DNA of 64,000 bases from a virus. Its lineage: Duplodnaviria; Heunggongvirae; Uroviricota; Caudoviricetes. This document shows positions 2,366 to 59,420 of the stretch, piece by piece (the stretch's first letter is position 1; each line of letters starts with the position of its first letter). Below the pieces are notes generated by a model. It was not told the origin of the DNA. It did not search any database and worked only from the letters and a program-made list of their open reading frames with translations. The position numbers and the translations under genes were made by a program. The DNA lies in the IMG/VR virus record IMGVR_UViG_3300027734_000034; one strand, given 5' to 3'.

Positions 2366-2387
2366 TAGTATTTATCTTTGTTATGGC

Positions 2388-2412
2388 AAACCTCACCTTT
2401 TAAGTGAGGTTT
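2388..2412. other. hairpin AAACCTCAC-N7-GTGAGGTTT between gene 32 promoter region and upstream gene end
   Basis: 9-bp stem seen in sequence; T-run only on plus side. Confidence 0.3.
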
Positions 2413-2430
2413 TTGATAAGTAATTTACCC

Positions 2431-5226
2431 TTATCTTCTGTGATTCATAATCTGTAAGATACGGTCTAAGTCATCTTGACCTTCTTTTACATCTTTCTTG
2501 TCATCTTTTTTAGCCATTGATTTGGTAAGCGTATCTAGCGCGTGTTTGACCATTTTTTCTTTTGATATTGGCTTTGCTTCTTTATCAGGACCAGGACGCG
2601 GATCAGTATCACGACCTGTATACGCGCTTGGTTGGCTCTTGTCCATTTCTTCTAATACGCTACCAATATCAGTATCACGCTTGTCATGTTGTGGTGATTT
2701 TGGTTTTTCTAATCTCTTTAGTATACTTGAGATTTTCTGATGTATTCTATCTGAGCCAGCCTCGATAGGATCTCTGCTCCAGTCTGTGTTGGAACGCTCA
2801 TAATCATTTGGATTCAAATCTCTATCATATTGTGTATGAGTACCTTCATCCATTTCATCTTCAGTTGTAACTGCTTGAGCATCCATGTTGATGAAGTTTT
2901 CTTTCATTTTACGGTCGCCGTATAATTCTTTATCAGTAATCTTATCAGCAGCAGCAACTGCATCTTTGCCAAACTTTTTTTCTACTCTCTTTTCGGTTGC
3001 ATCTGCTTTGCGGTGTGCCTCGTCATCTCCCCATCCATCCATACCATGCGCTCTGCGTTTACCTAAAGTTTTTACTGCTAATTCTTGTGAAATTTCATCT
3101 AGTTGACTTTCATTAGCACCGACTAGTTTACCTACTGCACCTTTTGGGCCTACTTTTTCTGTAGGTCCTAATTGACCTACACGCTTTTGATTAGCATCAA
3201 GACCTTCATCTACTTCTTTTTCTTTTTGACGTTGTTCTAACTCTTTGCCATACTTCTGTACTTTTTCGCGGAAGCTTTTCTCTTGTTCTTTGCTAGTCTC
3301 GCCTTTAGTAGACTTACGTGCATCATATTGACCCATGTCTACTTCTTCAGATACACCTTCTTCTTTGTGACTAAATTTAGCACGAATGTTTTGCATTTTT
3401 TCTTTACCAGCATGTTCACGACCTGCTTTGCGTAATGCGTCCATACCTTTTTCACCGTACTTCTTATTACCTAAGTATGCTTGCAATGCACTTTCTTCAA
3501 CTTCTTCTTCTGGCAATACACCTTTTGGTCCGCCACGCATTGTATATTGACTACTTGCTTTCATGTCACCCATGCGGCCTTTAGTTAGAGTTCCTTTTTT
3601 GCCTGCTTTATCTGTTTTGTACACATCATCTGGTCCAGCTGATTTTTTTAAAGCAAGTGTATCATAGTTAGGTTTCTTACCTGAGTTGTATCTTCTTTGA
3701 GTTGTTATATTTCCAAGGGCATTCATAGCATCACCTATAGAATCAAAGGTCGAATGAATATCATCAGTACCGTAATAACCGTTATTAACATTAAAGTCTA
3801 CTTTAATTTTACCAGTTTTTAAATCTTGTATAACGGTACCGCTAGCATCATATCCATCTTCATCATCATCAAAATCAAATTGTCTTGTATTAGGTTCATC
3901 TGGGTCAACTTCATACCAGCCGTGTAAATTTTCAATTGCTTTACCAAAATCTCCTTTACCTTCAGCGATACCATTCAATGATTGTGTAACTTGCTTGACC
4001 CAACCACTAACATCACTACCGCCAATTTCTTCAACATCACCTACATATTCAGCAACGCTATCAATAGCATCTCCTACTTTTTCAGGGCCATATTTCTGCA
4101 ATAAATCTGGGTGTTGCATTAGTATGCGTCTTGTTATAGCTTGTGTAACCGGACTATACTGGTCTAAACTTTCAGGAATGCCAACTGGGTTATTGCTTGT
4201 AAGGCTTTCTTCTTCGACCAAACTGTCAGCCCACTCTGCTAGCTTGTTCATCTCTTTATCAACCACTGATTCAGAAACTTTTTTATGTATTCTATTCAAT
4301 ATAGGCATTACACTTTCAATACGTGGATCTAATGTTTCTTGTACAAACAATTCATTTAGATTAGATTCATCACCTTCAGTTTCCATCAATGCAGGAGTCC
4401 AGCTTTCAAAGTAAGCATTGTATCCACGCTTACCAGTCATGCGGCTCAATGATTCGCGTAGACTTTGATAGTGTGCGATACCTTCATTGACTAATGATTG
4501 TGCTGATTCATTGAATTGACCATTACGTGTAGCACGAACGAATCCAGCCATCTTGCTATATTCTTCACATAGGCTATGAACATGGTTCCAACGATCATCA
4601 TTGACTTTGCCACCTTCAGCGATATGTCTAGCATATACACGGGCGATACCTGGCTTCTTAGTATCAAGTAGATAGCGTTCGCCTTCTTGATTCTCTAGGA
4701 ATATCCTATTGATGTTACGATAGCGTTGTTCACCTTCTTCAATGACACGGCTGTGTTCAATGACAATCTTGACTGTAGGTATAGCATCGCTATAACTTGC
4801 TTTTCTGCCCATTGGGTAGTAACCCTCTGCTATTTTGTCTTTGTCTCTCATATGTTTCCTTCTTGCCATATCGTCATTAACATGGTCTTTGTTCTTTGTA
4901 TTAAATCCTTTAAGTCCTCTAGTCATTCTAAAAGAACTTAATTGATGTAAAAATCCGCTCCAAGAATCATCATAATCTAATCCCGGGGTTTTATCACCAG
5001 GACTATTAGATACATCATCACCGAAATATACAGTTAATACTCTATCATCATCTAATGTAACAAAGACGGTTCCGTATTCTTCCCCGTCTTTAGTAAATTC
5101 AAACTTGAAAATGTCTGCTTCATCTGGAACTGGAGTAGCTTTACCTGTTGCGTCTAACGGTTTTGGTTTATATTTGGACAACAATTGATAAAGTTGACGG
5201 TTGAGGGTTTCTGTATTAGTTGGCAT
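2431..5226 (-). CDS. large Lys/Glu/Asp-rich hypothetical protein (931 aa)
   Basis: Long uninterrupted ORF; strongly charged low-complexity C-terminal half (KEKE-like); no catalytic motif recognised. Confidence 0.5.
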   Translation of the reverse strand: MPTNTETLNRQLYQLLSKYKPKPLDATGKATPVPDEADIFKFEFTKDGEEYGTVFVTLDDDRVLTVYFGDDVSNSPGDKTPGLDYDDSWSGFLHQLSSFRMTRGLKGFNTKNKDHVNDDMARRKHMRDKDKIAEGYYPMGRKASYSDAIPTVKIVIEHSRVIEEGEQRYRNINRIFLENQEGERYLLDTKKPGIARVYARHIAEGGKVNDDRWNHVHSLCEEYSKMAGFVRATRNGQFNESAQSLVNEGIAHYQSLRESLSRMTGKRGYNAYFESWTPALMETEGDESNLNELFVQETLDPRIESVMPILNRIHKKVSESVVDKEMNKLAEWADSLVEEESLTSNNPVGIPESLDQYSPVTQAITRRILMQHPDLLQKYGPEKVGDAIDSVAEYVGDVEEIGGSDVSGWVKQVTQSLNGIAEGKGDFGKAIENLHGWYEVDPDEPNTRQFDFDDDEDGYDASGTVIQDLKTGKIKVDFNVNNGYYGTDDIHSTFDSIGDAMNALGNITTQRRYNSGKKPNYDTLALKKSAGPDDVYKTDKAGKKGTLTKGRMGDMKASSQYTMRGGPKGVLPEEEVEESALQAYLGNKKYGEKGMDALRKAGREHAGKEKMQNIRAKFSHKEEGVSEEVDMGQYDARKSTKGETSKEQEKSFREKVQKYGKELEQRQKEKEVDEGLDANQKRVGQLGPTEKVGPKGAVGKLVGANESQLDEISQELAVKTLGKRRAHGMDGWGDDEAHRKADATEKRVEKKFGKDAVAAADKITDKELYGDRKMKENFINMDAQAVTTEDEMDEGTHTQYDRDLNPNDYERSNTDWSRDPIEAGSDRIHQKISSILKRLEKPKSPQHDKRDTDIGSVLEEMDKSQPSAYTGRDTDPRPGPDKEAKPISKEKMVKHALDTLTKSMAKKDDKKDVKEGQDDLDRILQIMNHRR

Positions 5227-5230
5227 AATT

Positions 5231-5239
5231 GTATTTATC
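5231..5239 (-). promoter_or_regulatory. GATAAATAC motif 5 nt upstream of ATG of 931-aa gene
   Basis: Minus strand AAGATAAATACAATTATG. Confidence 0.3.
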
Positions 5240-5245
5240 TTAATC

Positions 5246-6799
5246 TCAACTTAGTACGGCAAAGAATGGTAGTGGAGCAATGAATTCCTCGTGGTCCTTA
5301 ACATAACTGTCTAATTCAAAGTGATATGAACCTAATTCCTGTATCATTCTGACAGATAATAAGCTGGCCATAATCAAGTCGTCCGTATCCCCAACTTTAG
5401 CAGCATAACTACCCGCATGTGCTACAAACGCTTTTAATTCGCTGATAAGACTACGACTATTTACGGTTAGTTTCTTGCTTTCAAGCAATGTCTTAAACTT
5501 AGCGCAAGCAGTTAATTTGCTCTTATTTGTTGTATTGAAACCTTTACGCTTCTTTCCAGGTTCACTGATAAAAATTCCTGGAATATTATTCTCTCCATAT
5601 TCGTTTAATGATACCAATGCTGCTTCGCCAATACTATTGTTCTCTACACTATAATAGACATTGTTTGGTTCATTTGTACATTCAACAATATACTTGTTTA
5701 TCTGAGCCATTAGTTTAATCTGTGTTGGGATATCAGTTTTATTGTGCTTCCATTCACCAACTTGTGTAACTGTATTTGCCTCATATATTTGTATAGCAGC
5801 TGGGTCATTGCCTGTGCCAATACTAGGGTCTAATGCTACTGTATAGATATTGCCTTTGACTGGTTTCTGATACCAACGAACTTGCCCCATTCTACTTACT
5901 GGTTCTATACCCTGTAAATCAAGCAATGTGTTTGGATTAATAAGTGTTTCATCTGCAATAATGAATTCACAACCAATTTCACGACGGAATCTATCTTCAC
6001 CTAATTGTGCTTTCATTTCATCAGCCCACTTTTGGTCTCTGCCAGGTTGTTCTTGCCAGTCTGCTCTATATGCTTTGAATCCGTTGATACCTAGTTCTGT
6101 TGTGTTACCAAATTCATCTTCAGTTTTGTTAGCACCTTTCCAGATGAAAGCAAATTGATCCTCATCACTATTTGGGGTACTTGTGATAATTGCTTTACCA
6201 CCAGTACTTAATGTTGGTGTAATGGCTGTCCAGAATTCTTTAGCGATACTTGGTCTAACGAACGCAAACTCGTCTAGGTATAACAATGTAATAGACATAC
6301 CACGACCTGTATTTTCAGTAGTAGTTGCAGAAACAATACGACTACCATTTTCAAAGTCTAATGAGCCTTTGTTATAAGTTGTTACACCTGCTTTGATATA
6401 GTCTGGGCAGTTTTCATATGCATAACGAACACGCTGCATAATTTCTTGTGCGCCTGTGTATTTGTGTGCTGCTATAAGAATAGTACTGTCTGGTACAAAC
6501 ATAGCATACCAAAGTAAGTACCCAGCTGCACTAGTTGATTTGCCTGATTGTCGAGGCATTAAACTGATACTGTAGCGATAGTTATGATATGTGTTAATTA
6601 ATCGTTTCTGATAGTCATAGGGATGATACACCATACTTCCCTTAGTAGGGTGTTGTATCATAAAGAAGTTATCCATGAAGTATAGATAACCTGTGTCAGG
6701 GTCGCAACACTTTATAAAGTCCTGTAATTCCTTATCGTTCTTAAATTTTGTTTTAGTATAAGGATCTTTTACTAGAGATGCTTGACCTGTTTTATTCAT
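5246..6799 (-). CDS. 17: terminase large subunit (gp17-like)
   Basis: Walker A MPRQSGKST, Walker B LLYLDEFAFV, overall colinearity with T4 gp17 ATPase region (YHPYDYQ..., IAAHK, KGS..NGS). Confidence 0.8.
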   Translation of the reverse strand: MNKTGQASLVKDPYTKTKFKNDKELQDFIKCCDPDTGYLYFMDNFFMIQHPTKGSMVYHPYDYQKRLINTYHNYRYSISLMPRQSGKSTSAAGYLLWYAMFVPDSTILIAAHKYTGAQEIMQRVRYAYENCPDYIKAGVTTYNKGSLDFENGSRIVSATTTENTGRGMSITLLYLDEFAFVRPSIAKEFWTAITPTLSTGGKAIITSTPNSDEDQFAFIWKGANKTEDEFGNTTELGINGFKAYRADWQEQPGRDQKWADEMKAQLGEDRFRREIGCEFIIADETLINPNTLLDLQGIEPVSRMGQVRWYQKPVKGNIYTVALDPSIGTGNDPAAIQIYEANTVTQVGEWKHNKTDIPTQIKLMAQINKYIVECTNEPNNVYYSVENNSIGEAALVSLNEYGENNIPGIFISEPGKKRKGFNTTNKSKLTACAKFKTLLESKKLTVNSRSLISELKAFVAHAGSYAAKVGDTDDLIMASLLSVRMIQELGSYHFELDSYVKDHEEFIAPLPFFAVLS

Positions 6800-6843
6800 A
6801 ACTTTATTTATGTGGATAACTACCCAATTATATAATTAGGTAA

Positions 6844-11610
<4,767 letters not shown>

Positions 11611-11625
11611 CTATCTATTTAACTG

Positions 11626-13344
11626 TTAAAGAGTAATGTAACCCCAATTTACTACTTGTGATGTTCCGCTATTGTTTGTAATACCAAATGTAAACACATT
11701 AGCAGTTGTAGTACTAACCACAGCATTACTAATATTGTTCACAGTTCCAACAATCTGCGTGGGTATCGCTGTAAGTACTAATGCATTACCTGCTGCATAA
11801 TACCAACCATAACTACTACCTACTACCGGAACATTGGTATTTGTAACAACCACTGTAGCAGTATATGTAACAATACCATTTGGAATATTTCCTCTAACCC
11901 ATAATGAGTAAGTACCGTTTATAGGAACCGTAATACTTACTGTGTTAGTACCTGCTGATAATGTCCAACTACCAGTTGTTGAGCCTGCACCCACACCAGT
12001 AGCACCTGTAATGCCTGTACTACCAGTTGCGCCAGTTGGTCCTGTAGCACCACTAGCGCCAGTTGTACCTACACCAGTAGCACCTGTGGCGCCCGGGCCA
12101 GTAGCACCGGTCGAACCATTGTATCCAGTAGCACCAGTTGCGCCTGTACTTCCTACTCCTTGTACTCCTGCGATACTAGTATCAAGCCACAATATATTAT
12201 GATCGACAGGAGCAGTAGATTGAGCAATTAAACCTTGCTCACCTGTTGCACCTGTGCTACCTAAACCAGTTGCTCCAATGGCACCTGTTGCACCTGTGCT
12301 ACCTAAACCAGTTGCGCCCGTAGCGCCTGTTGTACCTATATAACCAGTTGCGCCAGTAGCACCTGTTGTGCCTATATAACCAGTTGCGCCAGTAGCACCT
12401 GTTGTGCCTACAAAACCGGTTGCTCCTGTTGCACCTGTACTACCAATATAACCCGTAGCACCCGTTGCTCCAGTTGTACCTACAACGCCGGTGGCGCCAG
12501 TAGTGCCTGTGGCGCCAGTGGTACCAATCTCGCCTGTTGCACCTGTTGCGCCTATCCCAGTAGCGCCAGTGGAGCCTTCATTGCCTATATTACCAGTAGC
12601 ACCTGTTGCACCATTGTAGCCGGTAGCACCAGTAGACCCAGCCCCGGCTGGTCCGGTTGCACCTGTTGATCCTGTACCAGATGGTCCGGTTGCTCCTGTA
12701 CTACCTATTGCACCTGTTGCACCAGTAGAACCACCAGCTCCCCCACCGCCACCAGCGAAAGGGGTGCCATTAGCATAGAAATAGTTGTCAGTATAAATTG
12801 CGTTTGGTACTACATTGCCACTTGCATTTAAATTTATCGTATCAACATTGCCATATATCAATGCATATGATGCTGAAAAATTTGTAGTGTTAAGTGCAGC
12901 ATTTGCTTGATCCCAAGTTAAACTAGGACTACCATCAAAGTTACCTGTATTGTTAAATTGAATCTGTCCATTGCCACCGCCTACTTCGCCGTTACCGGAT
13001 CCACCACCTGTAACCCAAGTAAGATTACCGGCTCCATCTGTTACTAAATATTGACCGCTATTGCCACCGGTGACTTTGAATGTACCTATACTTAAAGTAC
13101 CAACTCGTGTGATATTGGGTTGTGCTGCATTTACTACAGAATATGCTAAATTAGCTAATGCTGCCGGTGCAAAATTTGCACCTCCTGCACCGGATAATAT
13201 TAAATTTCCTGCAACTTGCATGTTAGCTTTTTGTGTTACAGGGTCTCCGGACATGTTAACAACCGGAAATAACGAATTAGCCGCTATATTGCTACCTATA
13301 TTAGGTAACTCTGTTATTTTAATTGTTAAATTAGACGTAGCCAT
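11626..13344 (-). CDS. collagen-like repeat fibre protein. The track start at 13374 is a TTG codon; the likely true ATG is at 13344 with RBS AAAGGA.
   Basis: Long G-X-Y tract ([19 protein letters not shown]...), Gly-rich N-terminal region; ATG GCT ACG at 13344 preceded by AAAGGATATTTA. Confidence 0.6.
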
Positions 13345-13364
13345 TAAATATCCTTTTATTCTTG

Positions 13365-13372
13365 TATTTATC
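13365..13372 (-). promoter_or_regulatory. late-promoter-like box GATAAATA (T4 late consensus TATAAATA) upstream of fibre gene
   Basis: Minus-strand GTTGATAAATACAAG 21 nt upstream of ATG at 13344; same 9-mer GATAAATAC recurs at 2368, 5231, 15505, 59412. Confidence 0.35.
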
Positions 13373-13386
13373 AACAGTGGACATGG

Positions 13387-13410
13387 AAAGACCGAGCATG
13401 CTCGGTCTTT
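13387..13410. terminator. perfect 24-bp palindrome AAAGACCGAGCATGCTCGGTCTTT (bidirectional terminator-like hairpin)
   Basis: Seen directly; lies between the end of the methyltransferase gene (13427) and the start of the fibre gene; stem flanked by A-run on one side and T-run on the other. Confidence 0.45.
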
Positions 13411-13426
13411 GATAGGTTAAATACAA

Positions 13427-14128
13427 TTATTTGATATCTAGAGGTCTTTGCTTAGTAGCAACGATACAGTAAAAATGTTCTTTTGCTTTTTTCTTTTCAC
13501 CTTCTGGATCTGCATCATTCGGAAATTCAATATCAAATTCAAAGTTTTGAAACAAGTCAATGTTGAATCCAGTGCGTGTAATCAATGCTGCTAGTTGATT
13601 CTTACCTAAAATACTATAGTGATTTAGGTTAAATTCATGCTGTCTTTCAGTATCTGGGGCAGGAACTTCAATGTAAATCTTGCCAAACTGTTTAAGAATA
13701 CGATTATATTCCATTAAGCTAAAGATAGGGTATGGACTATGTTCCAATGCATGACGCAAAAAGATAAAGTCTACACTTTCATCATGGTATCCATCTTTTT
13801 GTGGGATAAAACTCAAGTCATATTTCTTAATCTTGTGACCTTTATCTTCACAGATTTTAATGTCTCCCGGGCTTAATGTTACACCAGTTAAATCAGTATA
13901 GCCTCTAGATTTCATTTGATCTAAGAAATAGCCTGGGCCACATCCTAAGTCTAAAATCTTGCTATCTTTTTTTAGATTTAATGGGTCGATATATTGTTCA
14001 ACCACTGATTTAGTCAATGACGAATGCATTTGACTATCGCCCTCATCATAGATGTGAGCAGTATACAACCATTCGTTGTAGAATTTTAACTTGATTAAGT
14101 CAAGTGTTTGGTTAATATCGATTATCAT
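13427..14128 (-). CDS. class I SAM-dependent methyltransferase
   Basis: Motif I ILDLGCGPGYFLD; downstream acidic residue pattern typical of Rossmann MTases. Confidence 0.55.
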   Translation of the reverse strand: MIIDINQTLDLIKLKFYNEWLYTAHIYDEGDSQMHSSLTKSVVEQYIDPLNLKKDSKILDLGCGPGYFLDQMKSRGYTDLTGVTLSPGDIKICEDKGHKIKKYDLSFIPQKDGYHDESVDFIFLRHALEHSPYPIFSLMEYNRILKQFGKIYIEVPAPDTERQHEFNLNHYSILGKNQLAALITRTGFNIDLFQNFEFDIEFPNDADPEGEKKKAKEHFYCIVATKQRPLDIK

Positions 14129-14180
14129 TAAGGTTCCTATAATTTGATATAATTACTTATTCTAGGAATATGATGATTGA

Positions 14181-14558
14181 TTATTTTCTTTTGTAACCTT
14201 TGAATGGTTTCACAATACTTTGCGTATTGGTATCAGGCAATTCTATACTTTCATCATCTCCATGATTCAAGTCCACAATATCACTACCCACTGCTTTATA
14301 TGCTTGCTTGAGCATTTTTGATTCTATATCAGTATATGGATGTGCTGTATTATAACGACCACTCCATGTTTCTGCATCTATCTCTAATGGAGTAGTTCCA
14401 TCTGCGCTAGCAACTGCCATCATAATACGATTCAATTCATAAGTACGGTCATACCCACCCGGATCACGAAACTTATGTAACCCACGCATGGCAAAGGATT
14501 GTCTTTTGGTAGGTGTACCGATCGTTCGTTGCTCAGTTAAAAACTCACTTGCTCTCAT
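14181..14558 (-). CDS. small protein with N-terminal T4 internal-protein-like capsid targeting sequence (MRASEFLTE)
   Basis: N-terminus MRASEFLTEQR cf. T4 IPI/IPII/IPIII CTS MKTYQEFIAE with L/I-x-E protease site; paralog of adjacent gene; C-terminus FKGYKRK. Confidence 0.45.
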   Translation of the reverse strand: MRASEFLTEQRTIGTPTKRQSFAMRGLHKFRDPGGYDRTYELNRIMMAVASADGTTPLEIDAETWSGRYNTAHPYTDIESKMLKQAYKAVGSDIVDLNHGDDESIELPDTNTQSIVKPFKGYKRK

Positions 14559-14947
14559 TTTGGATAACCTTTAAATGCTTTAACTGGACTGACCTTAACT
14601 ACATCAGTTGCTTCTTCACTTTTGTTAGTACTGATTAGTACTTTCTTACCTGGAACACCTGTTTCTTTCATTGCATAGTCAATATCTTTTTCAATATCAC
14701 CATCCATATATGAACTTACAATCATATTCTCTCCCCATGGAGTTTCTTTTTCAAAATTATAAGCTGGAATACTATCTTGCACTCTTTCTAGTTGCCCACG
14801 AGCACCGGCCAATGCTACACCAAACCGATATTGTTTATAGAAATCACTGTTGGGCAATCCTGGAATAGTATATGTGCCCGACAATGCTCTAGCAACATCA
14901 ACTGATAATGCAGCACGATTTTCCGTTATGAATTCTTTTGCTCTCAT
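14555..14947 (-). CDS. small protein with N-terminal T4 internal-protein-like capsid targeting sequence (MRAKEFITE)
   Basis: N-terminus MRAKEFITENR; C-terminus FKGYPK shared with neighbour; 4-nt overlap with downstream gene. Confidence 0.45.
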   Translation of the reverse strand: MRAKEFITENRAALSVDVARALSGTYTIPGLPNSDFYKQYRFGVALAGARGQLERVQDSIPAYNFEKETPWGENMIVSSYMDGDIEKDIDYAMKETGVPGKKVLISTNKSEEATDVVKVSPVKAFKGYPK

Positions 14948-15483
14948 ACTGTTATTTCGTTTTCCGTCTGTATGTTGAAATTGTTTTCAGTATCAATTAA
15001 GTCACTAGTTGTTTCTGTTTGTAAATCTAAGCCCGGTACAGGAACACCTGTCCATGTAATCTGTGCTGATATAAAATGAAACATGGTTGTATTTACTAAC
15101 GGATTAACTAATATGCGAACATTTGACGCAAAAATATCCATATTATAACCGGTCAACGCATTGCCATTGAAAATAGTACTATGTCCACTCCATTTGATAT
15201 TACTACCATCTGTTAATATAGTAGCAGTTAATGTGATATTTTCACTATCATTACTAGAAACATCATTGGAATTAATTTGAAAAACACCTTGCGTAAATGA
15301 TGTAGCAGGTGTTTGAAATATTACTTGATTAGGAATAGCTCCTGTTGAATATGCACTTGAAGTAAAAAATCCTGTACTGAATAATTGTGTGAAATTGTTG
15401 TTAATCTTCTGAAAGGCCGTACGTAACGGATCACCTTCACCGTCGTTAGGTTGAGCACCTACATTAATTATTTCTTGTGTCAT
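14944..15483 (-). CDS. hypothetical protein (179 aa)
   Basis: ORF with RBS AGGAT; preceded by GATAAATAC box. Confidence 0.45.
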   Translation of the reverse strand: MTQEIINVGAQPNDGEGDPLRTAFQKINNNFTQLFSTGFFTSSAYSTGAIPNQVIFQTPATSFTQGVFQINSNDVSSNDSENITLTATILTDGSNIKWSGHSTIFNGNALTGYNMDIFASNVRILVNPLVNTTMFHFISAQITWTGVPVPGLDLQTETTSDLIDTENNFNIQTENEITV

Positions 15484-15505
15484 ATCTAAATCCTAAACTA
15501 TAGTG

Positions 15506-15513
15506 TATTTATC
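15506..15513 (-). promoter_or_regulatory. late-promoter-like box GATAAATA
   Basis: Minus-strand GTGATAAATACACTATAGTTTAGGATTTAGATATG; box 22 nt upstream of ATG at 15483. Confidence 0.35.
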
Positions 15514-16252: not shown

Positions 16253-16260
16253 GCATATAT

Positions 16261-17220
16261 TTATCTATAATAGTCTGAGTTTTTCAACCAGTTGTAGTAG
16301 TTTTGAAAGCCTTCTTCCACATCAGTTTTAGGATTGAATCCAAAGTCTTGTCTAGCTGCATCAATATTCAATGCTCCGCGACTTGGAAAATCAATATCTT
16401 TTGCGCCAACTTCTAAATGACCGCCACCAGCTAATTCTAGTGCCATCTGTGCAGCCTTGAGTAGGGTGACGCTGTGGCTCTTTGTGATGTTGTATGTCTT
16501 GTTCTCTGTATTGTCGCTTAATGCTGCTGCTACAATACCATCAGCCGCATCATCTACATAAGTGAAGTCTAGTTTTTCATGCTCACCATTGACTTTCAGT
16601 ACTTTGCCCCGCATTGCTGTGAGTAAGAATTTGCTGATGACACGATCCTCTACATCGAATGGTCCATAAACAGCACTGGGGCGAATAATAGTATGAACAA
16701 GATTAGTACGGCGAGTATAGTCTTTAACAAGCCATTCACCCGCGAGTTTGAGTATTCCATATTGTCCTTGTGGTTTGCATTCATAATCTTCCTTTACATC
16801 ATCTTTAAAATCACCATATACCATAGACGAACTAATATAGATGAACTTACGAACATCGTAATTGTTACTAGATTCTAATAGATTGAGTAATCCTTCGCTC
16901 ATAGTACGGCTACCTAATGCTGGATTACTATTGACAACTTTCTGTCTAGGAAAGCTAGCCATGTGAATCACGATCTCCGGTTCTTCAATTCTAAAAATGT
17001 TATCTATTTCTTTAGCGTATGTGATATCTGTCACATACTGAAAACTCGTATCACCAATCTTCTTTTGTCGTTCAGCCATGAGATAATCAATCTCACTTTG
17101 AGGGATGATACCATAGTTAGTCTTGTTATCAATTATTGATACTGTATGTCCTTGATCCTGTAATCGTTTTACTACATTGTGACCGATTAGGCCCATACCG
17201 CCTGTTACTAATATGTTCAT
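16261..17220 (-). CDS. NAD-dependent epimerase/dehydratase (SDR family)
   Basis: N-terminal Rossmann motif ILVTGGMGLIGHNVV; catalytic YxxxK (YGILK). Confidence 0.6.
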   Translation of the reverse strand: MNILVTGGMGLIGHNVVKRLQDQGHTVSIIDNKTNYGIIPQSEIDYLMAERQKKIGDTSFQYVTDITYAKEIDNIFRIEEPEIVIHMASFPRQKVVNSNPALGSRTMSEGLLNLLESSNNYDVRKFIYISSSMVYGDFKDDVKEDYECKPQGQYGILKLAGEWLVKDYTRRTNLVHTIIRPSAVYGPFDVEDRVISKFLLTAMRGKVLKVNGEHEKLDFTYVDDAADGIVAAALSDNTENKTYNITKSHSVTLLKAAQMALELAGGGHLEVGAKDIDFPSRGALNIDAARQDFGFNPKTDVEEGFQNYYNWLKNSDYYR

Positions 17221-26520: not shown

Positions 26521-26571
26521 ATATTTTCCTGTGTAAGTGTGTTAAAGAGTTTTATACAGAACTCTTAACTG

Positions 26572-26579
26572 TATTTATA
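26572..26579 (-). promoter_or_regulatory. perfect T4-type late promoter box TATAAATA
   Basis: Minus strand GTATAAATACAG about 50 nt upstream of 61-aa gene; adjacent 7-bp hairpin AAGAGTT/AACTCTT. Confidence 0.3.
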
Positions 26580-28782: not shown

Positions 28783-29240
28783 CAGATATTTATCAACTTT
28801 TTAGCTTCGTCCTCAGTTTTGTACGGACCCTCATACTCATAACGCTGTATAAAGATGTATTTAGGGCAAAAAACTACTGTAGGTTCTTCACTTTGATACA
28901 TAACATACCATCCTGCCGCATGATAACACTTGCTTTTAGTTGTTTTAGTGAATAAATGTATTTTGCGCTTGATGTCCAACATAGAATTGTAGACCTTCTT
29001 TGTTGTTGGATATTCATTAAAAGGTATTTCTTTTTTAATCTTTTCTGCTTTTGTTTGTTGAAACTCTATGCTAGTTTGTTTTTTAATAGCACTAGTGTTT
29101 TTAAAATGAGTTTTACTGCCGTTGAGTTTTACTTCAAAGCCTGAACCATCAGCAATAACATTTCCTACCTTTGATGTACCATCAGTAACAATCCAGAATT
29201 GATTCTTAACTACGGGTTTTGCGATTAGTGGTTTTGACAT
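28782..29240 (-). CDS. hypothetical protein (152 aa)
   Basis: ORF only. Confidence 0.4.
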   Translation of the reverse strand: MSKPLIAKPVVKNQFWIVTDGTSKVGNVIADGSGFEVKLNGSKTHFKNTSAIKKQTSIEFQQTKAEKIKKEIPFNEYPTTKKVYNSMLDIKRKIHLFTKTTKSKCYHAAGWYVMYQSEEPTVVFCPKYIFIQRYEYEGPYKTEDEAKKLINI

Positions 29241-46615: not shown

Positions 46616-47713
46616 TTATTGCCTGAATGAATTTATGTCACCTAAATATACTTTTTTGTTTTTAAAAATATCATCTTTTAATATTTCTTTTAGTAAAATT
46701 TTATCTTCTGCGTTTAAATTTAATCTATCGTACATAATGTTATCTAAATGTCCCCACTGCCGTATACTATTAAAATATATACCTGTCAAGTTTTCATATG
46801 ATAATTGCCAATTAATATAGTCTTTAATTTCTTTATAATTACCTTTTTGGACAGTAAAAGAAGTACTCCAGCCAATAAAATTTTTAAAACTGTTACTTAT
46901 AATCATTTCATTAAGAAATTTTAAATTTTCATCTAATTTATCTTTAGATCCATTTATTCTTATCTTTGAATAAGTTTCATTTGAAAATGCATCGATACTT
47001 ACTGTAATATGTGTGATATTATTCCATAATGGTTTTATTTGATTCCAGCGTGATTCTGTCATTAAAATACCGTTGGTCATTAGTTTTATTGTTAAATTTT
47101 CATTTAGATTTTTTGTTGACAATGTTTTTAAGTAATTCCAATAAGTAGGACTTGCAAAAGCATCTCCACTACCAGTAATGTTTATACTAACCTTTTCACC
47201 TTGTTCTAATAAATAATCAACAAGTTTTTCAACTTTGTCATTGATATTATCTATTTGTTTATTTTCTCCCAATTTATGAAGTATTAAATTATTACGACAA
47301 CTAGGACATTGCAAATTACATGATAAATCATAACAAAAATGAATTATGATTGAATTAGAATTTTTATAAAAATCTAATAATTGCAAAGGTACAATTGTAT
47401 TACCAGGCATTACTTTATCATTTAACATTTGACTAATAAAAGGACAATAGTCATTGCAGTTTGTGAATTTACCCTCACTCATATCTGATATCATAGCTAG
47501 TCGTTCTGAATTATTAATGATATCTTCTATTGAATCTGTAATAATATTGCCGCAAAATTTTGGTAACCAAGAAAAACAACATATAGTAATATCACCATTG
47601 TGGTGAATTTCTAAATGTTTTGATATTTTATAACAGCCGAAATTTTTTAAATATTCCTGTGTTCTTGCATACTCATTTTCTGATTTCATTAAAAAATTCA
47701 TGTTATGATTCAA
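46616..47713 (-). CDS. radical SAM domain protein of unknown function
   Basis: CNLQCPSC (CxxxCxxC) motif about 130 aa from N-terminus; additional Cys pairs near N-terminus; 365 aa. Confidence 0.55.
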   Translation of the reverse strand: MNHNMNFLMKSENEYARTQEYLKNFGCYKISKHLEIHHNGDITICCFSWLPKFCGNIITDSIEDIINNSERLAMISDMSEGKFTNCNDYCPFISQMLNDKVMPGNTIVPLQLLDFYKNSNSIIIHFCYDLSCNLQCPSCRNNLILHKLGENKQIDNINDKVEKLVDYLLEQGEKVSINITGSGDAFASPTYWNYLKTLSTKNLNENLTIKLMTNGILMTESRWNQIKPLWNNITHITVSIDAFSNETYSKIRINGSKDKLDENLKFLNEMIISNSFKNFIGWSTSFTVQKGNYKEIKDYINWQLSYENLTGIYFNSIRQWGHLDNIMYDRLNLNAEDKILLKEILKDDIFKNKKVYLGDINSFRQ

Positions 47714-48192
47714 TCTTTAAATTCATTATCTTCTCTGTGTCCTTGACGACCTGCCATGTTTGAATCAGTCTCACGTACTTCTACTTTACAGCACCAAACA
47801 CGTTTGGCTTCTTCACTGCCGCAGTTGGGTAAGAAGATAGTGTTCACATATTCATATAAGAAATCACTGATACCTTCACATCCTGTCTTTTCAACCTCTG
47901 TAATTTTTGCTAGTTTAAGTTTACCTAGATTCAATAGATGTTCACGCATCGGGTCATCTTGTGCGACTAGTAATGTATGATCGAACCATTCTTCTAATTT
48001 TTCTTTGAGTGGTTTCAAGCCACCAAAGTCAGTCACCCAGTTTCGTGCATCTAATGTATCCGCTTCAAATTCAAAATGAAACGACATTGCGTAACCATGA
48101 ATCATGTTACAATGACTATCTGCACGCCATTGACGATAAGCTACTGGACCTATCTGTTTGTACGTTTTTGTACTGAAATATTTTTTTGCCAT
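47710..48192 (-). CDS. queD: QueD/PTPS-family protein (6-carboxytetrahydropterin synthase-like), divergent metal site
   Basis: SHCNMIHGYAMSFHFEFE vs QueD HKCGRLHGHSFMVRLEI; WFDHTLLV vs LDHHYLN; third His replaced by Tyr. Confidence 0.5.
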   Translation of the reverse strand: MAKKYFSTKTYKQIGPVAYRQWRADSHCNMIHGYAMSFHFEFEADTLDARNWVTDFGGLKPLKEKLEEWFDHTLLVAQDDPMREHLLNLGKLKLAKITEVEKTGCEGISDFLYEYVNTIFLPNCGSEEAKRVWCCKVEVRETDSNMAGRQGHREDNEFKD

Positions 48193-48266: not shown

Positions 48267-48728
48267 TTATTTATCCTTTGATTCAGCTTGTACTACACGC
48301 TTACGCAAACTACTGCTACTGAAACTATGGTCACGGCTATTGAATACTAATTCAATCTTACGCTTCTCGCAGATTGCTCTACCAGTAAAGTCTTTCTCCA
48401 TGTACTCAACCCCTAGTATACGCACATCTACTGGCAATGTCAACAGTATGTCTTCCAAATCTTTTTCTGTATTGTAAACAACAATTTCATCTACAAAACG
48501 GACAGCACTTAAACTGATTTGGCGTTCAACAATACTTTGAATGGGAGCATTCTTATCTGGTCTATCCCATTGTGCATTATTTTGTAACCCAGCAATGAGG
48601 TAATCGCAATGATTCTTAGCTTCACTAAGCATTGCGATATGTCCTGCATGTAATATATCAAATTGCGAGAACACGATACCTATCTTTAGGCCTTGTAATT
48701 TTAGTTCTTTGATACGGTTGAATATCAT
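48267..48728 (-). CDS. cytidylyltransferase-family nucleotidyltransferase (TagD/RfaE-II-like, HxGH motif)
   Basis: IGIVFSQFDILHAGHIAMLSEAKNHCDYLIAG aligns with TagD [30 protein letters not shown]. Confidence 0.6.
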   Translation of the reverse strand: MIFNRIKELKLQGLKIGIVFSQFDILHAGHIAMLSEAKNHCDYLIAGLQNNAQWDRPDKNAPIQSIVERQISLSAVRFVDEIVVYNTEKDLEDILLTLPVDVRILGVEYMEKDFTGRAICEKRKIELVFNSRDHSFSSSSLRKRVVQAESKDK

Positions 48729-48997
48729 TCTTCAACTCCAAAAAAGTGTTCTTTAATTGCTACATAACTGTCAACACCACATTGAACATAACCATCCCAA
48801 TGTGTGTCCTTCATCATAAGTTCATCTTCCAGCACAGGCAGATATTGTTCTCTTACTTGATTCATACATTCAGCTATAATCAATTCAGCAAGATTTTCTA
48901 AGTTTTGTTTGTCATCATCATGCCCGTATAAGCTAGACCGTTTTAATGCCCAATCAAATCCAGCCTGTTCAGCAAGTTGTTGAATTCGTTCGTTCAT
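48725..48997 (-). CDS. MNERI/HFGVE small-protein family member
   Basis: MNERIQQLAEQAG, NLENLAELIIAEC, C-terminus KEHFFGVEE. Confidence 0.5.
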   Translation of the reverse strand: MNERIQQLAEQAGFDWALKRSSLYGHDDDKQNLENLAELIIAECMNQVREQYLPVLEDELMMKDTHWDGYVQCGVDSYVAIKEHFFGVEE

Positions 48998-49677
48998 TTC
49001 CCACCCCGAGCCAATTGATAGAATTCTGCTCTTGCTGCTGGATCACTTTTGAATCCACCACCTAATTTACTTGTAACAGTACTAGAGCCAGTATCTTCTA
49101 CACCTCTTGATTTAACACAATAATGTTGTGCATCAATCATGACCGCAACATCTTCTGTCTCAAGGATATATTGCAATGCGTGAAAGATTTGTTCTGTCAA
49201 TCGTTCTTGTATTTGTGGACGCTTGCTAAAGTATTCTACGATACGATTGATTTTACTCAATCCAAGTACTTTCTGATTGGGAACGTATGCCACAGTTGCT
49301 AGTCCATCGATGACTACAAAGTGATGTTCGCAATTGCTTTGTACATTGATATTGCGTTCGCATACCATTTCGTTGTACTTCATCTTGTTATCAACTGCTG
49401 TACATTTAGGAAATGCCTCATAATCTAATCCCCAAAAGATTTCATTGACATACATCTTTGCTACACGTTTTGGGGTGTCAATCAGACTATCATCTGTTAA
49501 GTCAAGACCTAATGCTGTCATAATATCAGCAAATAATACTTCAATGACTTCAATCTTGCCTTTACGGTCGATGATTTGACCTGTCTCTTTGATAGGAGTT
49601 TCAACTCCCATCTTAACCAAATGTTCGTGTACTTTTTGACCCAACTCTGGATCTGTTTTTGTTTTATTATAACTCAT
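48994..49677 (-). CDS. folE: GTP cyclohydrolase I
   Basis: CEHH motif (NCEHHFVV), C-terminal QHYCVKSRGVEDTGSSTVTS region typical of FolE; strong RBS AAGGAAGG. Confidence 0.8.
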   Translation of the reverse strand: MSYNKTKTDPELGQKVHEHLVKMGVETPIKETGQIIDRKGKIEVIEVLFADIMTALGLDLTDDSLIDTPKRVAKMYVNEIFWGLDYEAFPKCTAVDNKMKYNEMVCERNINVQSNCEHHFVVIDGLATVAYVPNQKVLGLSKINRIVEYFSKRPQIQERLTEQIFHALQYILETEDVAVMIDAQHYCVKSRGVEDTGSSTVTSKLGGGFKSDPAARAEFYQLARGGK

Positions 49678-49713: not shown

Positions 49714-49739
49714 TGTAAGCTACCGTTGTGTAGCTTACA
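49714..49739 (-). other. 10-bp perfect hairpin TGTAAGCTAC-N6-GTAGCTTACA in folE 5' region, downstream of GATAAATAA box (49743-49751)
   Basis: Seen in sequence; followed on minus RNA by UUUCAAAAC; either terminator of upstream small gene or 5'-UTR structure. Confidence 0.4.
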
Positions 49740-49756
49740 TATTTATTTATCACAGA

Positions 49757-54008: not shown

Positions 54009-54369
54009 TAACCTCTTCTTTTTTAATTAAAGTTCTGACAATACGTATCTGTTCTTCTTTTTGCTTGATAGTGTCTAGTAAATCTTTGATAGTGGGATTA
54101 GTTTCTGCTAATGCTGATAATTCCATTTCTTCATCACGCTTTTTTCTAGCCCAATCAAGTAATGATTCTGCATCAGATGATAACCCAATACTTGCATAGC
54201 TAGTATTCATTGTCATCCAAGTACTTCCGTCAAACACTTGCGTATCAGTACCATTAATACGTATCATCCCTTGAATAGGATTGTTTATATTCTGATTGAT
54301 ATAGGGAACACTAGTGTTCCCTGCGGAAACAACGGTGTACTTACCCATTGGAGCTATACCCTTGATCAT
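53983..54369 (-). CDS. hypothetical protein (128 aa)
   Basis: ORF only. Confidence 0.4.
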   Translation of the reverse strand: MIKGIAPMGKYTVVSAGNTSVPYINQNINNPIQGMIRINGTDTQVFDGSTWMTMNTSYASIGLSSDAESLLDWARKKRDEEMELSALAETNPTIKDLLDTIKQKEEQIRIVRTLIKKEEVNDLPYGPG

Positions 54370-55097
54370 TTTTTGTTCGCTGGAAGCAAGTAAACATATG
54401 TTGCGATACCACTATCAACTGTAATCTCAGTCGCACCTTGTTCGCTAATCTTGACTTTCTTGTCACCAACTTGATCCATGATACTCAAGAATTCTTTAAC
54501 GGGCCACTTATGTGTACCAGCTAGTGTACCAGTCACTGGGGTGTTGAACACAAAGTTACCACTGTGAGTTGATGCATCACCAAAGTATATCTTCAAATCA
54601 CTGCCATCAGTTTTGAATACAAAATGTTCTTCTTCGCTATTAGCATTTGCTTGCTTTTTAAGACGTTGAATACCTGCAACTGTCGGCTCAAATTCAACAT
54701 TCCATTTAGCACCTTTGAATGATACACTCTTAACTTTTTCATCGACTACGCTTTTAAGCATAAGACGATAGTCATTAACAAAATCACCGTTCTTTGTTTC
54801 GAAATGAATAGTAGATGGAACATCTACACCATCACGCTGAGTACGAACAACATTGATTTTAGCATCTTTGTCATATTCGTCAAACCCGATAATTGTCTTG
54901 AGTTTACTCAAGTTAGGCATACCAAACACACCGATAAAGTCAGCTAGTGGGTCTTTGAATGTACCACTTACGATAACATTTTTGTTTTCAGCTACTGCAT
55001 TGATAGTAGTCTCTGTATCAGTACCAGTAACTTTAACAAGTTCAATTGTACCAAGACCATGCGTATGGTCAATTAAGTCTTTTAAATAATCTTTCAT
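54366..55097 (-). CDS. hypothetical protein (243 aa) immediately downstream of DNA polymerase
   Basis: ORF only; no convincing match to T4 gp45 clamp. Confidence 0.4.
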   Translation of the reverse strand: MKDYLKDLIDHTHGLGTIELVKVTGTDTETTINAVAENKNVIVSGTFKDPLADFIGVFGMPNLSKLKTIIGFDEYDKDAKINVVRTQRDGVDVPSTIHFETKNGDFVNDYRLMLKSVVDEKVKSVSFKGAKWNVEFEPTVAGIQRLKKQANANSEEEHFVFKTDGSDLKIYFGDASTHSGNFVFNTPVTGTLAGTHKWPVKEFLSIMDQVGDKKVKISEQGATEITVDSGIATYVYLLPANKK

Positions 55098-55175
55098 TTT
55101 GTTTCCTTTGTTTAAAATATTTAGGAGTTCCTATCACGTATTATAGTGGAATATATTGCAATAGTCAACACCAGT

Positions 55176-57881: not shown

Positions 57882-58192
57882 TACAGTGTTTTACCCACAG
57901 TTTCCAAGATAGTATTTAATTCCTCGTGGTCGGCATTTGTTTGACCAAGACTTGCTTTGTGTGCGACAGATATTGCCTTCTTAAGAATGCTAGGCTTTAC
58001 TTCTAGTTCTTCTGCAATAGCCTTGACAGTATCACTTAGACCCTCGCGTAGGGTATCGATCTCGTGTAATACTACCATGCCCTCGTTGATAAGTTGAGTC
58101 AACTTAATCTTTTGCTCTCCGGTAAACATTTTATCACTCATAGTTTCTCCTTGTAAAGTAATTAGTATACATGCCTTGTGTAGAAAAGTCAA
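57881..58192 (-). CDS. hypothetical protein (103 aa), stop overlaps polymerase ATG (TAATG)
   Basis: ORF; translational coupling. Confidence 0.4.
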   Translation of the reverse strand: MTFLHKACILITLQGETMSDKMFTGEQKIKLTQLINEGMVVLHEIDTLREGLSDTVKAIAEELEVKPSILKKAISVAHKASLGQTNADHEELNTILETVGKTL

Positions 58193-58797
58193 ACATTTTG
58201 CTGTTTTTCTACAATCTTTTTAACCACAGTATTCAGTCCTGGGTTAATATGTAATGCGTGTGGCATTAAATGTGTTCTTACATAGTTACGCATATACTTC
58301 GTGTCATCATTGCTATTATCGTGACACCAATCAATTGATTTCTGTTCGCACCATTTTGTGAATTCGATTTTGTTTGTAGTTAGAAATGGGCGAACAACAT
58401 TGTTTCTTTTTGCTGGGATAACTTTGGCTTGTCCATGCATTGCTGACCAAAGATATGTTTCTACGCAATCATCTAAGTGATGACCAGTTATCACTGGACC
58501 CAATGAATTGCCAATACTATCCAAAAAATCATAGCGTTCATTACGCCAATGTTCTTCCATGCTAAGTTCTTTGGGTTTACTCTTTTTAATCATCCCAATC
58601 ATCAATGGAAGTTTTCGTTCTGTGCAGAAATTAGCAACAAATTGTAAGGCTCGTTCGCTATTCTCTGTTCCATGATGGAAGAAAGCGCAACCTACCTTAT
58701 GCTTGTGTGAAAGGAAATCAGTGATGGCAACAGAGTCAACACCGCCACTAAGTGCGACAACAACTTCTTTTGGTAATGGAAAGAGTAGTTTTAGCAT
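58189..58797 (-). CDS. PP-loop ATP pyrophosphatase, TilS N-terminal-domain-like (not a canonical QueC)
   Basis: PP-loop VVALSGGVDSVAI; TilS-type motifs VITGHHLDDCVETYL (AHHxDDQxET) and RNYVRTHLMP (RNRIRHELLP); lacks QueC Zn-ribbon Cys cluster and TilS C-terminal domains. Confidence 0.5.
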   Translation of the reverse strand: MLKLLFPLPKEVVVALSGGVDSVAITDFLSHKHKVGCAFFHHGTENSERALQFVANFCTERKLPLMIGMIKKSKPKELSMEEHWRNERYDFLDSIGNSLGPVITGHHLDDCVETYLWSAMHGQAKVIPAKRNNVVRPFLTTNKIEFTKWCEQKSIDWCHDNSNDDTKYMRNYVRTHLMPHALHINPGLNTVVKKIVEKQQNV

Positions 58798-58823
58798 CTA
58801 CGCATTATAGCATAGAAACGATT

Positions 58824-59408
58824 TTATTGAAAGATTTCTGGGTGACTTTTGCCAAATATTTTCATGGCTTTGCCCGCAGTCATATCTGCTAGCATTTCAA
58901 TTGGGCTACCAGGATAACTATCGCCCGGTTCGATCATATTCAATTCACCTTGACGTACATGGGTTAGTTCGTGATAAACGGTACGCATAATGTCAACCAT
59001 GTTACGATTAGCAACATATACCCAAACACTGTTATCGTTTTCTGAATGACGACCGGTGTGATGTCCTTGTTGTGCTTCTTCGGTATTGTAACTGAATTCA
59101 AATTTAGGTGTAGATTGTAGATGTAATTCTTTACTAGCCCACTGGATGAATTTTTGCATTATTGGATTGTCTTCCAAGAAGTTTGGTTCATCGCTTGCTT
59201 CATCTAATTTACCCTTGACCCATTCATCTGGTGATCTTTTGAATTTGTGAACGAACAAATCATGTAATGCTTTACCAGTGATACGATGTTTACTTGCAAT
59301 ATTTTGCATCAACTTGTCAATAGTATTATAGTCATATTTTTGCAATGACGGTAGTCTTTTTGATAATTCAATTGCAGCGGATTCAACAATGATGTGTTTT
59401 GTGAGCAT
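58824..59408 (-). CDS. hypothetical protein with C-terminal HExxH motif. The track start at 59432 is GTG; ATG is at 59408.
   Basis: VYHELTHVRQG; GATAAATAC box ends 3 nt upstream of ATG. Confidence 0.4.
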   Translation of the reverse strand: MLTKHIIVESAAIELSKRLPSLQKYDYNTIDKLMQNIASKHRITGKALHDLFVHKFKRSPDEWVKGKLDEASDEPNFLEDNPIMQKFIQWASKELHLQSTPKFEFSYNTEEAQQGHHTGRHSENDNSVWVYVANRNMVDIMRTVYHELTHVRQGELNMIEPGDSYPGSPIEMLADMTAGKAMKIFGKSHPEIFQ

Positions 59409-59411
59409 TAT

Positions 59412-59420
59412 GTATTTATC
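59412..59420 (-). promoter_or_regulatory. GATAAATAC motif 3 nt upstream of ATG at 59408
   Basis: Minus strand GATAAATACATAATG. Confidence 0.3.

Follow-up and report, generated by a model that had tools for sequence, protein, structure and literature searches.

A probable T4-type late promoter motif in two distance classes from start codons in an uncultured freshwater jumbo-phage clade

What does a copy of a phage late promoter do when it lies almost on top of a start codon? This question is raised by a 64,000-nt stretch of DNA of an uncultured virus of the Caudoviricetes (IMG/VR virus record IMGVR_UViG_3300027734_000034), which was analysed as a whole and is referred to below as the window. 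A first-pass annotation, made by eye, had noticed that the 9-mer GATAAATAC recurs immediately upstream of structural or late-type genes. It took the 9-mer for a variant of the T4 late promoter with a consistent, lineage-specific G in the first position, and it remarked that in two cases the motif ends only 3-5 nt before the ATG, a placement that could indicate either leaderless late mRNAs or a translational operator in the manner of RegA. The explanation that we consider likely overall is that (G)ATAAATA(C), with its variant CTAAATA, is the single recognition element of T4-type late promoters that are built in two layouts, one with a leader and one in which the box abuts the start codon.

Occurrence and conservation of the motif

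The window contains 62% A+T and its intergenic DNA, which makes up about 4.7% of the sequence, is richer still, a composition in which an A/T-rich word might recur by chance. The counts argue otherwise. GATAAATAC was found five times, against a mean of 0.86 expected from dinucleotide-preserving shuffles (0 of 100 shuffles reached 5), and the five copies (starting at positions 2368, 5231, 13364, 15505 and 59412) all lie in intergenic DNA on the minus strand, which carries nearly all genes of the window, so that 5 of 5 are in sense orientation. These are exactly the sites listed in the first-pass annotation, and the related forms that it placed near 39010 (plus strand), at 49743-49751 and at 26571-26579 are all present as well. 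GATAAATA is represented by 10 copies versus 4.7 expected and is in sense orientation in 10 of 10 cases, including a plus-strand copy ahead of the plus-strand block (39073), and canonical TATAAATA is depleted in the window (3 copies versus 7.3 expected). The 7-bp core ATAAATA occurs 21 times, with 12 copies in intergenic DNA or at a gene edge. One-mismatch variants of the core are located there in only roughly 5-30% of cases, which is not a comparable enrichment, and permutations of the same composition show no comparable enrichment in intergenic DNA or ahead of ATG codons.

An exhaustive count on both strands, coding versus intergenic, was extended to 993 kb of open reading frame (ORF) interiors. 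Inside ORFs, ATAAATA is the rarest of 21 letter permutations on both strands (sense, 66 copies versus a median of 215; antisense, 21 versus a median of 122). Since a signal acting in translation would not require avoidance on both strands, this points to a DNA signal, i.e. a promoter.

In the window the core marks at least 12 gene starts (Table 1), and four of the conserved sites (6804-6812, 16257-16265, 28786-28794 and 55117-55125) had escaped the original inspection by eye. The genes behind the motif encode the terminase large subunit (TerL), a 931-aa virion protein, a collagen-like fibre protein, a baseplate/fibre-connector-like protein and a membrane protein encoded beside an Rz-like spanin, so the earlier description of them as structural or late-type is apt for packaging, virion, fibre, baseplate and lysis genes. 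It does not cover the genes for a gene-32-like single-stranded DNA-binding protein (SSB), FolE and an HExxH protein, nor several small ORFs, all of which are preceded by the motif too. Similarly, 'immediately upstream' is accurate for the copies at 5231, 59412, 13364 and 15505, which end 4, 3, 19 and 21 nt before the ATG, respectively (the first two being the cases of very short distance noted before), and not for the copy at 2368, which is 109 nt away from the SSB gene.

Conservation of the motif was studied in approximately 430 loci (2.9 Mb) of uncultured relatives, obtained with seven protein-seeded scans of viral contigs, six of them seeded with window genes. The relatives were reached through proteins because a DNA-level search with the first 20 kb of the window gave no match among cultured phages. 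At the protein level, the SSB shares 49% identity with that of Pseudomonas jumbo phage PA5oct and 40-45% with those of Sinorhizobium phage Phosso, Agrobacterium phage Atu_ph07 and RaK2-like coliphages. Relatives whose TerL is 80-98% identical have retained the motif at the starts of orthologous genes, with variation in the flanks and even in the upstream genes. For TerL itself, [AC]TAAATA-N4-6-ATG is present in 79 of 88 homologues despite upstream genes that differ between contigs, and behind the TerL stop codon, 76 of 81 homologues of the 931-aa protein show (G/c)ATAAATA or aCTAAATA with a spacer of 4-7 nt to the ATG. Among unique relatives, the HExxH gene is preceded by GATAAATA-N4/5-ATG in 24 of 29 (including ones with an unrelated upstream context), the 153-aa membrane protein gene has a spacer of 4-8 nt (mostly 5 or 8) in 41 of 45, and the 66-aa gene one of 4 nt in 39 of 48. 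The more distant boxes are kept at comparable distances: 20 nt for the collagen fibre gene in five relatives, 19-28 nt for the 243-aa gene (18 of 18 unique relatives), 50-63 nt for the 61-aa gene (12 of 14), 54-55 nt for the 560-aa gene (5 of 8) and 57-66 nt for folE (51 of 57); the motif and leader of the baseplate-like gene are kept in 51 of 59. Control genes were nearly always free of the motif: DNA polymerase in 35 of 38 cases, the 152-aa gene in 46 of 46, the epimerase in 35 of 35 and the methyltransferase in 60 of 64. The alignment of regions upstream of virion genes, which the first-pass annotation had suggested as a check, thus places the motif at orthologous positions and not at control genes. 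Together with the shuffles and the variant and permutation controls, this orthologous conservation over hundreds of contigs refutes chance recurrence, to which we assign a negligible probability.

Nature of the signal and its distance from the start codon

The core is invariant at conserved sites and the base before it is G in 44-53% of cases, with C, A and T also used. The minor form CTAAATA is found at about a quarter of the sites of the clade, including 55118-55124 in the window and the TerL sites of many relatives. Upstream of the box no -35 signal was detected (a mean of 0.025 bit per position from -45 to -15 among 145 loosely clustered family representatives), and this lack of information means that a -35 element is missing. 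Downstream of it, A+T is 66-89% at most of the four positions that begin with the second base past the core, against a background of about 62%; one position is at 50% in the sites with a leader. Terminators directly precede the boxes of the SSB and collagen fibre genes. These features recall the late promoters of T4, in which TATAAATA occupies positions -13 to -6, T(-13) is poorly conserved, and the box is followed by an A/T-rich segment; in Aeromonas phage Aeh1 the box is CTAAATA (PMC1524935; PMC2988020).

A family of gp55-like sigma factors (about 280 aa, with 3069 metagenomic homologues) is encoded by PA5oct-like phages, Atu_ph07, RaK2-like phages and Xanthomonas jumbo phages, and these are also the cultured phages that have the SSB in common with the window. 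The Atu_ph07 member matches T4 gp55 weakly (31% identity over half of gp55, E = 3e-3). Orientation, placement, conservation, the missing -35 element, the avoidance inside ORFs and the presence of this sigma in the SSB-sharing phages all support the earlier proposal of a T4-type late promoter variant, and the motif is very probably a phage-specific promoter of this class. What had been described as a consistent, lineage-specific G proved to be a preference and not a rule. Moreover, in the 150 kb of PA5oct examined, GATAAATA is located ahead of tail sheath, fibre, baseplate and other virion genes, with no sense copy in the 1-44 kb block of small genes, and therefore the G form is common at least to PA5oct.

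In the proposed mechanism, host core RNA polymerase together with a phage sigma of the gp55 family, encoded outside the window, would bind the box as a -10-like element at -13 to -6, without a -35 element, and transcription would start approximately 6 nt downstream of the box. The sigma factor and the start site are both inferred.

In 476 unique contexts we measured the spacer, i.e. the number of nucleotides between the core and the first ATG that opens a long ORF, and its distribution is bimodal. Spacers of 4, 5, 6, 7 and 8 nt were found in 79, 119, 36, 9 and 21 contexts, respectively, spacers of 9-15 nt in 4 and spacers of 16-35 nt in 163. About half of the sites thus have the box 4-8 nt from the ATG (mode 5), and this abutting layout was seen in no fewer than 11 gene families. 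Shine-Dalgarno-like tetramers were found in 11 of 264 contexts with this layout (4%) and in 92 of 163 leadered ones (56%). The flanks of the box are alike in both classes: the core is preceded by G in 50-53% and followed by C in 47-55%. The start codons (255 ATG and 2 TTG in abutting contexts; 72 and 1 in leadered ones) do not discriminate between the classes, as the clade uses ATG nearly everywhere. In 80% of abutting contexts a pyrimidine directly precedes the ATG, in keeping with the rule that transcription starts at a purine (+1) behind a pyrimidine (-1).

With the T4 numbering (box at -13 to -6), a spacer of 5 nt would place +1 on the A of the ATG, and the mRNAs of the TerL, 931-aa virion, 153-aa membrane, 66-aa and HExxH proteins are consequently predicted to be leaderless. 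In this abutting layout the +1 would fall on the A of the AUG or 1-2 nt ahead of it, and the mRNA would be initiated directly by 70S ribosomes. In the leadered layout (the collagen fibre, baseplate-like, 243-aa, folE, 61-aa and 560-aa genes) the box is 16-35 nt or more from the ATG, the leader usually containing a Shine-Dalgarno sequence and, if long, opening with a 5' hairpin. A start about 6 nt past the box would also account for the gap at 9-15 nt, since mRNAs of this kind would no longer begin with the AUG and would have too little room for a ribosome-binding site in the leader. Judged by this geometry, it is moderately likely that abutting sites yield leaderless mRNAs. The abutting cistrons lack a ribosome-binding site on read-through RNA and would therefore be translated only from their own late-promoter transcripts; late timing and the leaderless route of translation are in this sense what we infer for them.

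One orthologous promoter can exist in both layouts. In Phosso, which keeps the gene order TerL, large virion protein, SSB of the window, the orthologue of the 931-aa gene is preceded by cTATAAATAt (a TATAAATA box) and a 21-nt leader with AGGAG, at the place where the clade has the abutting form. A 92-aa protein family beginning with MFDPFKQAKIQNGYA (clade loci L002-L183) was likewise seen with abutting boxes (4-8 nt) in 7 contigs and with leadered ones (24-25 nt) in 12, and the layouts therefore interconvert during evolution.

Three other explanations of the motif have to be weighed. It could act in RNA, as an A/U-rich enhancer recognised by the ribosome (S1) in place of a Shine-Dalgarno sequence or as an operator of a RegA-like repressor, and in five window genes and at least 11 families it does occupy the Shine-Dalgarno position (-12 to -5), with no Shine-Dalgarno sequence present. 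However, the identical motif and its flanks are conserved 16-110 nt from other starts that have a Shine-Dalgarno sequence of their own, and the Phosso orthologous site is 21 nt upstream of its gene with a canonical AGGAG. It is the exact sequence that is conserved, and not mere A/U richness; the antisense avoidance within ORFs is not required by an RNA signal, and the empty 9-15 nt interval is better explained by a fixed transcription start than by an enhancer. As for RegA, an operator of this type would be expected at or beside the start codon of every mRNA under its control, whereas 7 of the 12 conserved window sites are separated from the ATG by 19-109 nt. The mRNAs that RegA regulates are early ones, whereas the genes behind the motif are for packaging, virion and lysis functions, and no RegA-like protein was found among the 30 window proteins scanned, a set that leaves out most small ORFs. 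We therefore regard an RNA-level signal as quite improbable, and of the two options offered by the first-pass annotation for the short distances, leaderless mRNAs are favoured by the 4-6 nt peak, the missing Shine-Dalgarno sequence and the 9-15 nt gap, and the operator is not.

It is highly improbable that the host sigma-70 holoenzyme recognises the motif without any phage sigma, taking it for a weak -10 hexamer or an A/T-rich UP element. GATAAA agrees with TATAAT at 4 of 6 positions, and at the SSB gene the motif ends 2 nt ahead of a strong, near-consensus sigma-70-like promoter, with conserved spacing: (G/C)ATAAATAC-ta-TTGACA is kept in about 25 relatives, and the promoter (11 of 12 matches) is the top-scoring such site in window positions 1-20000. 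Yet only the SSB site has an adjoining sigma-70-type promoter; at the remaining sites there is no -35 hexamer or other conserved base beside the motif, and the key final T of the -10 hexamer is missing. The motif matches the late consensus of T4, Aeh1 and phage CBB base for base, the cultured phages with which the window shares its SSB also encode a gp55-like sigma, and in PA5oct the motif is common ahead of virion genes and missing from the small-gene block. The third possibility accepts a true T4-type late promoter and supposes that the abutting genes are not leaderless, because the mRNA begins at another site or is translated from a start codon further downstream, the closeness being a result of tight packing. 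Genomes of this kind are dense, the TAA inside the motif can serve as a stop context (as in the overlap with the epimerase stop codon at 16261-16263), and with a spacer of 7-8 nt the mRNA would still have a leader of 1-3 nt. Against this, protein conservation with codon-like third-position variation begins at the abutting ATG in homologues of the HExxH protein, TerL and the 931-aa protein; in the 931-aa gene a start-codon heuristic finds the following in-frame ATG 125 codons further on; packing alone would give smooth spacers instead of a sharp 4-6 nt peak and a 9-15 nt gap; and no Shine-Dalgarno sequence is available to any alternative route. We consider packing unlikely.

Several observations weigh against late promoters with a leaderless class. 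No gp55 homologue was found in the window or in the fetched flanks by tblastn with T4 gp55 and the Atu_ph07 sigma as queries. A profile scan for the sigma gave 80 viral-contig loci, none of which was on a contig tied to the clade and none had a window protein within 3 kb. The window ends, when extended through related contigs, led to RecA-like, helicase and other genes and to no sigma. PHROG scans of the 30 window proteins detected no gp55, gp33 or RegA family, although no search was aimed at gp33 or gp45 and most small ORFs were outside these scans; homologues of gp33 and gp45 were not found in CBB by the authors of its description either (PMC5259590). Not all genes behind the motif are late genes in the classical sense (SSB, folE, HExxH and small ORFs are exceptions), and the promoters may belong to a 'middle and late' class instead of a strictly late one. 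In front of the SSB gene the motif keeps a fixed distance of 2 nt from the -35 hexamer, the place expected for an UP element. Spacers of 4 and of 6-8 nt require a shift of the start site by 1-3 nt or leave a leader of 1-3 nt. Finally, a few orthologous positions account for most of the family counts, and independent events are far fewer than sequences.

Sites in the window and neighbouring features

The conserved sites are listed in Table 1, together with the sigma-70-like promoter of the SSB gene.

Table 1. Boxes of the probable late type and the accompanying promoter in the window. Spacers are counted from the core; other distances are those between the box and the gene.
Box or feature	Position	Strand	Downstream gene and context	Distance	Prediction
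GATAAATAC	2368..2376	-	gene-32-like SSB (1257-2258); directly behind terminator hairpin	109 nt	
Sigma-70-like promoter TTGACA-N16-TATACT, TG before second hexamer	2338..2365	-	SSB; in tandem with late motif, context only		
GATAAATAC+AATT+ATG	5231..5239	-	931-aa virion protein (2431-5226)	spacer 5 nt	leaderless
CATAAATAA+AGTT+ATG	6804..6812	-	terminase large subunit (5246-6799)	spacer 5 nt	leaderless
GATAAATAC	13364..13372	-	collagen-like fibre gene (11626-13344); behind terminator hairpin	19-nt leader with AAAGGA	
GATAAATAC	15505..15513	-	baseplate/fibre-connector-like gene (14944-15483)	21-nt leader with AGGA	
GATAAATAT+ATGC+ATG	16257..16265	-	153-aa membrane protein (15791-16252)	spacer 5 nt	leaderless
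TATAAATAC	26571..26579	-	61-aa gene (26335-26520)	50 nt	
GATAAATAT+CTG+ATG	28786..28794	-	66-aa gene (28582-28782); box in 3' end of 152-aa gene	spacer 4 nt	leaderless
GATAAATAA	39010..39018	+	560-aa gene, plus strand (39073-40755)	54 nt	
GATAAATAA	49743..49751	-	folE (48994-49677)	65 nt	
CCTAAATAT (CTAAATA form, 55118-55124)	55117..55125	-	243-aa gene (54366-55097)	19-nt leader with AAAGGA	
GATAAATAC+ATA+ATG	59412..59420	-	194-aa HExxH protein (58824-59408)	spacer 4 nt	leaderless

The box of the 931-aa gene sits between the TerL stop codon (5246) and the ATG of the gene, and that of the 153-aa gene overlaps the epimerase stop codon, the Rz-like spanin gene following after the 153-aa gene. The 243-aa gene is located downstream of the DNA polymerase gene. 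The collagen-like fibre gene with a box (572 aa) is adjacent to a second minus-strand gene of this kind (6844-11601, 1585 aa), which begins 22 nt past the stop of the former and has no late box of its own.

Three further copies were not counted as functional. GATAAATAA at 48267..48275 (minus strand; core at 48268-48274) forms the last codons and stop (GAT AAA TAA) of gene 48267-48728, is kept in 6 of 43 unique relatives and is probably due to chance. The core at 25593-25599 falls between the two hexamers of a sigma-70-like promoter, the gene downstream of which has no homologue in the fetched relatives, and that at 27014-27020 is not kept in three relatives. Another copy, at 23452-23458, is 1 nt from an ATG (no relatives were retrieved). 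A 7-bp inverted repeat at the HExxH site (GTGAGCA...TGCTCAC) is incidental, as the second arm reads TGCTTAC or TGCTAAC in relatives.

Several leaders appear to be structured. A perfect 9-bp inverted repeat (ttaagagtt-ctgtataa-aactcttaa; 26543-26568, minus strand) starts 2 nt past the TATAAATAC 9-mer of the 61-aa gene, and in the folE leader a hairpin (tgtaagctac-acaac-ggtagcttaca; 49714-49739, minus strand) starts 3 nt past the 9-mer, i.e. at the predicted 5' end of the transcript; the 61-aa gene would thus be the second with a predicted late transcript opening with a 5' hairpin. The folE stem co-varies in relatives and its loop (ACACAAC/ACAAAGG) is conserved, with no match to preQ1 or any other Rfam family; it could be a 5' stabiliser or an unknown sensor. 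The SSB leader (2259-2337, minus strand), below the sigma-70-like promoter, is conserved in about 25 relatives and contains a co-varying hairpin (gttagTTACTTCatggtGAAGTAgcgaa; variants TCGTTTC/GAAGCGG and TCACT/TAGTG), followed by an A/U-rich stretch and AAGGA. It has no Rfam match and is reminiscent of the autoregulatory operator of T4 gene 32. A further structured element, conserved, intergenic and about 80 nt long (59433-59503, minus strand), is situated between gene 59505-60188 and the HExxH promoter and adjoins queuosine-pathway-like genes. It consists of a hairpin (GGCC-GGCTGCT-GGCC) and a long-range stem (AACGAA...TTCGTT), which co-vary in relatives (GCGTAG...CTACG, GTTTAG...CTATAA), with compensatory changes in 6 of 10 pairs (RNAalifold) and no Rfam match. 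In the window as a whole no Rfam family reached the gathering threshold, only noise being found near the three structured leaders and no preQ1 riboswitch before folE; tRNA genes were not found either.

The QueD-like (47710-48192), GTP cyclohydrolase I FolE (48994-49677) and QueC-like (58189-58797) genes suggest a 7-deazaguanine (preQ0/queuosine-type) pathway, possibly for DNA modification. Unusual phage cargo is represented by a ferritin/Dps-like protein (PF00210; 63147-63587, minus strand) and by a 328-aa protein (60814-61800, minus strand), whose 318-aa homologue in the related contig L266 has a precomputed Pfam match to TctC (PF03401, periplasmic binding protein family).

Comparison with known systems and meaning

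The sites described here share with T4 (gp55 sigma, gp33 and gp45 clamp) the ATAAATA core, the variable first position, the lack of a -35 element and the placement of sense boxes ahead of virion, packaging and lysis genes. T4 gene 32 has tandem early-type and late-type promoters, as does the window SSB gene. The differences concern the first base (T or A in T4-like phages, mostly G here), the presumed sigma, which belongs to the family of about 280 aa that matches T4 gp55 weakly, and the spacing: over the 70-120 kb late region of T4, boxes that precede genes are separated from the ATG by 14-35 nt and followed by a Shine-Dalgarno sequence, and none of them abuts a gene start. A precedent for the choice of transcription start deciding whether a cistron can be translated is T4 lysozyme (gene e), which, as McPheeters et al. 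reportedly found in 1986, is translated only from late-promoter RNA, since a hairpin in the early read-through RNA hides its ribosome-binding site. The outcome, late-specific synthesis, would be alike, but in gene e the hairpin masks a Shine-Dalgarno sequence, whereas here there is none and a 5'-terminal AUG is predicted. Leaderless phage mRNAs include that of lambda cI from PRM and the middle and late transcripts of Thermus phage P23-45. In these, too, a -10-like element lies a few bases from an AUG start without a Shine-Dalgarno sequence; the promoters, however, are recognised by host sigma-A-type factors.

Among jumbo phages, CBB ('promoter 3', ATAAATA/CTAAATA) and GAP32 are reported to have such boxes, as predicted late promoters, before structural genes, together with a gp55-like sigma (PMC5259590). 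The RaK2-like phages thus resemble the clade of the window in the core motif, its placement and the sigma, and belong to the same broad lineage as judged by SSB and sigma homologues. Unlike them, the clade is uncultured, has about 38% G+C and is only about 40-50% identical in core proteins, and reports on RaK2-like phages do not mention a G(-13) preference, two spacing classes or a leaderless geometry. The CTAAATA form is that of Aeh1, with the difference that here CTAAATA and ATAAATA coexist in one genome and swap at orthologous positions. In PA5oct (MK797984) two abutting sites were observed, GATAAATAT-cgat-ATG of EST35_0127 (49,615, minus strand; gene start at 49,602) and TATAAATAC-gtgt-ATG of the virion protein EST35_0222 (144,972, plus strand; gene start at 144,985). 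The layout is rare there (two cases in 150 kb), the remaining GATAAATA boxes (such as those at 118,615, 96,873 and 90,292) being leadered, several of them with GTG starts. The published promoter list of PA5oct comprises only TATAATA/TTGAC-type promoters, and an RNA-seq set is available (GSE130190) (PMC7318152). A literature search, with partial coverage of journals, retrieved no report linking gp55-type late promoters with leaderless mRNAs.

As a T4-type late promoter with a G-preferring first position, the motif is ordinary and to be expected, while the conserved fusion of the box to the start codon, with two sharply separated spacing classes, is the new and unexpected part. For annotation, the motif marks late transcription units and helps to fix starts that gene callers may misplace for want of a Shine-Dalgarno sequence. 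Since PA5oct is a cultured phage with the same G-form motif and two abutting sites, the leaderless idea can be tested there directly with the published RNA-seq data. The broader claim, that in a large and widespread clade of uncultured freshwater jumbo phages about half of the gp55-type late units, among them those of the terminase, virion and lysis-associated proteins, are leaderless and the choice of start acts as a strict gate on late translation, has in our estimate an even chance of being right. If the abutting transcripts are leaderless, T4-type late transcription would be coupled directly to Shine-Dalgarno-independent translation on a genome-wide scale, which would be a simple means of keeping packaging and lysis proteins strictly late and would bear on host range, as hosts differ in the efficiency with which they translate leaderless mRNAs.

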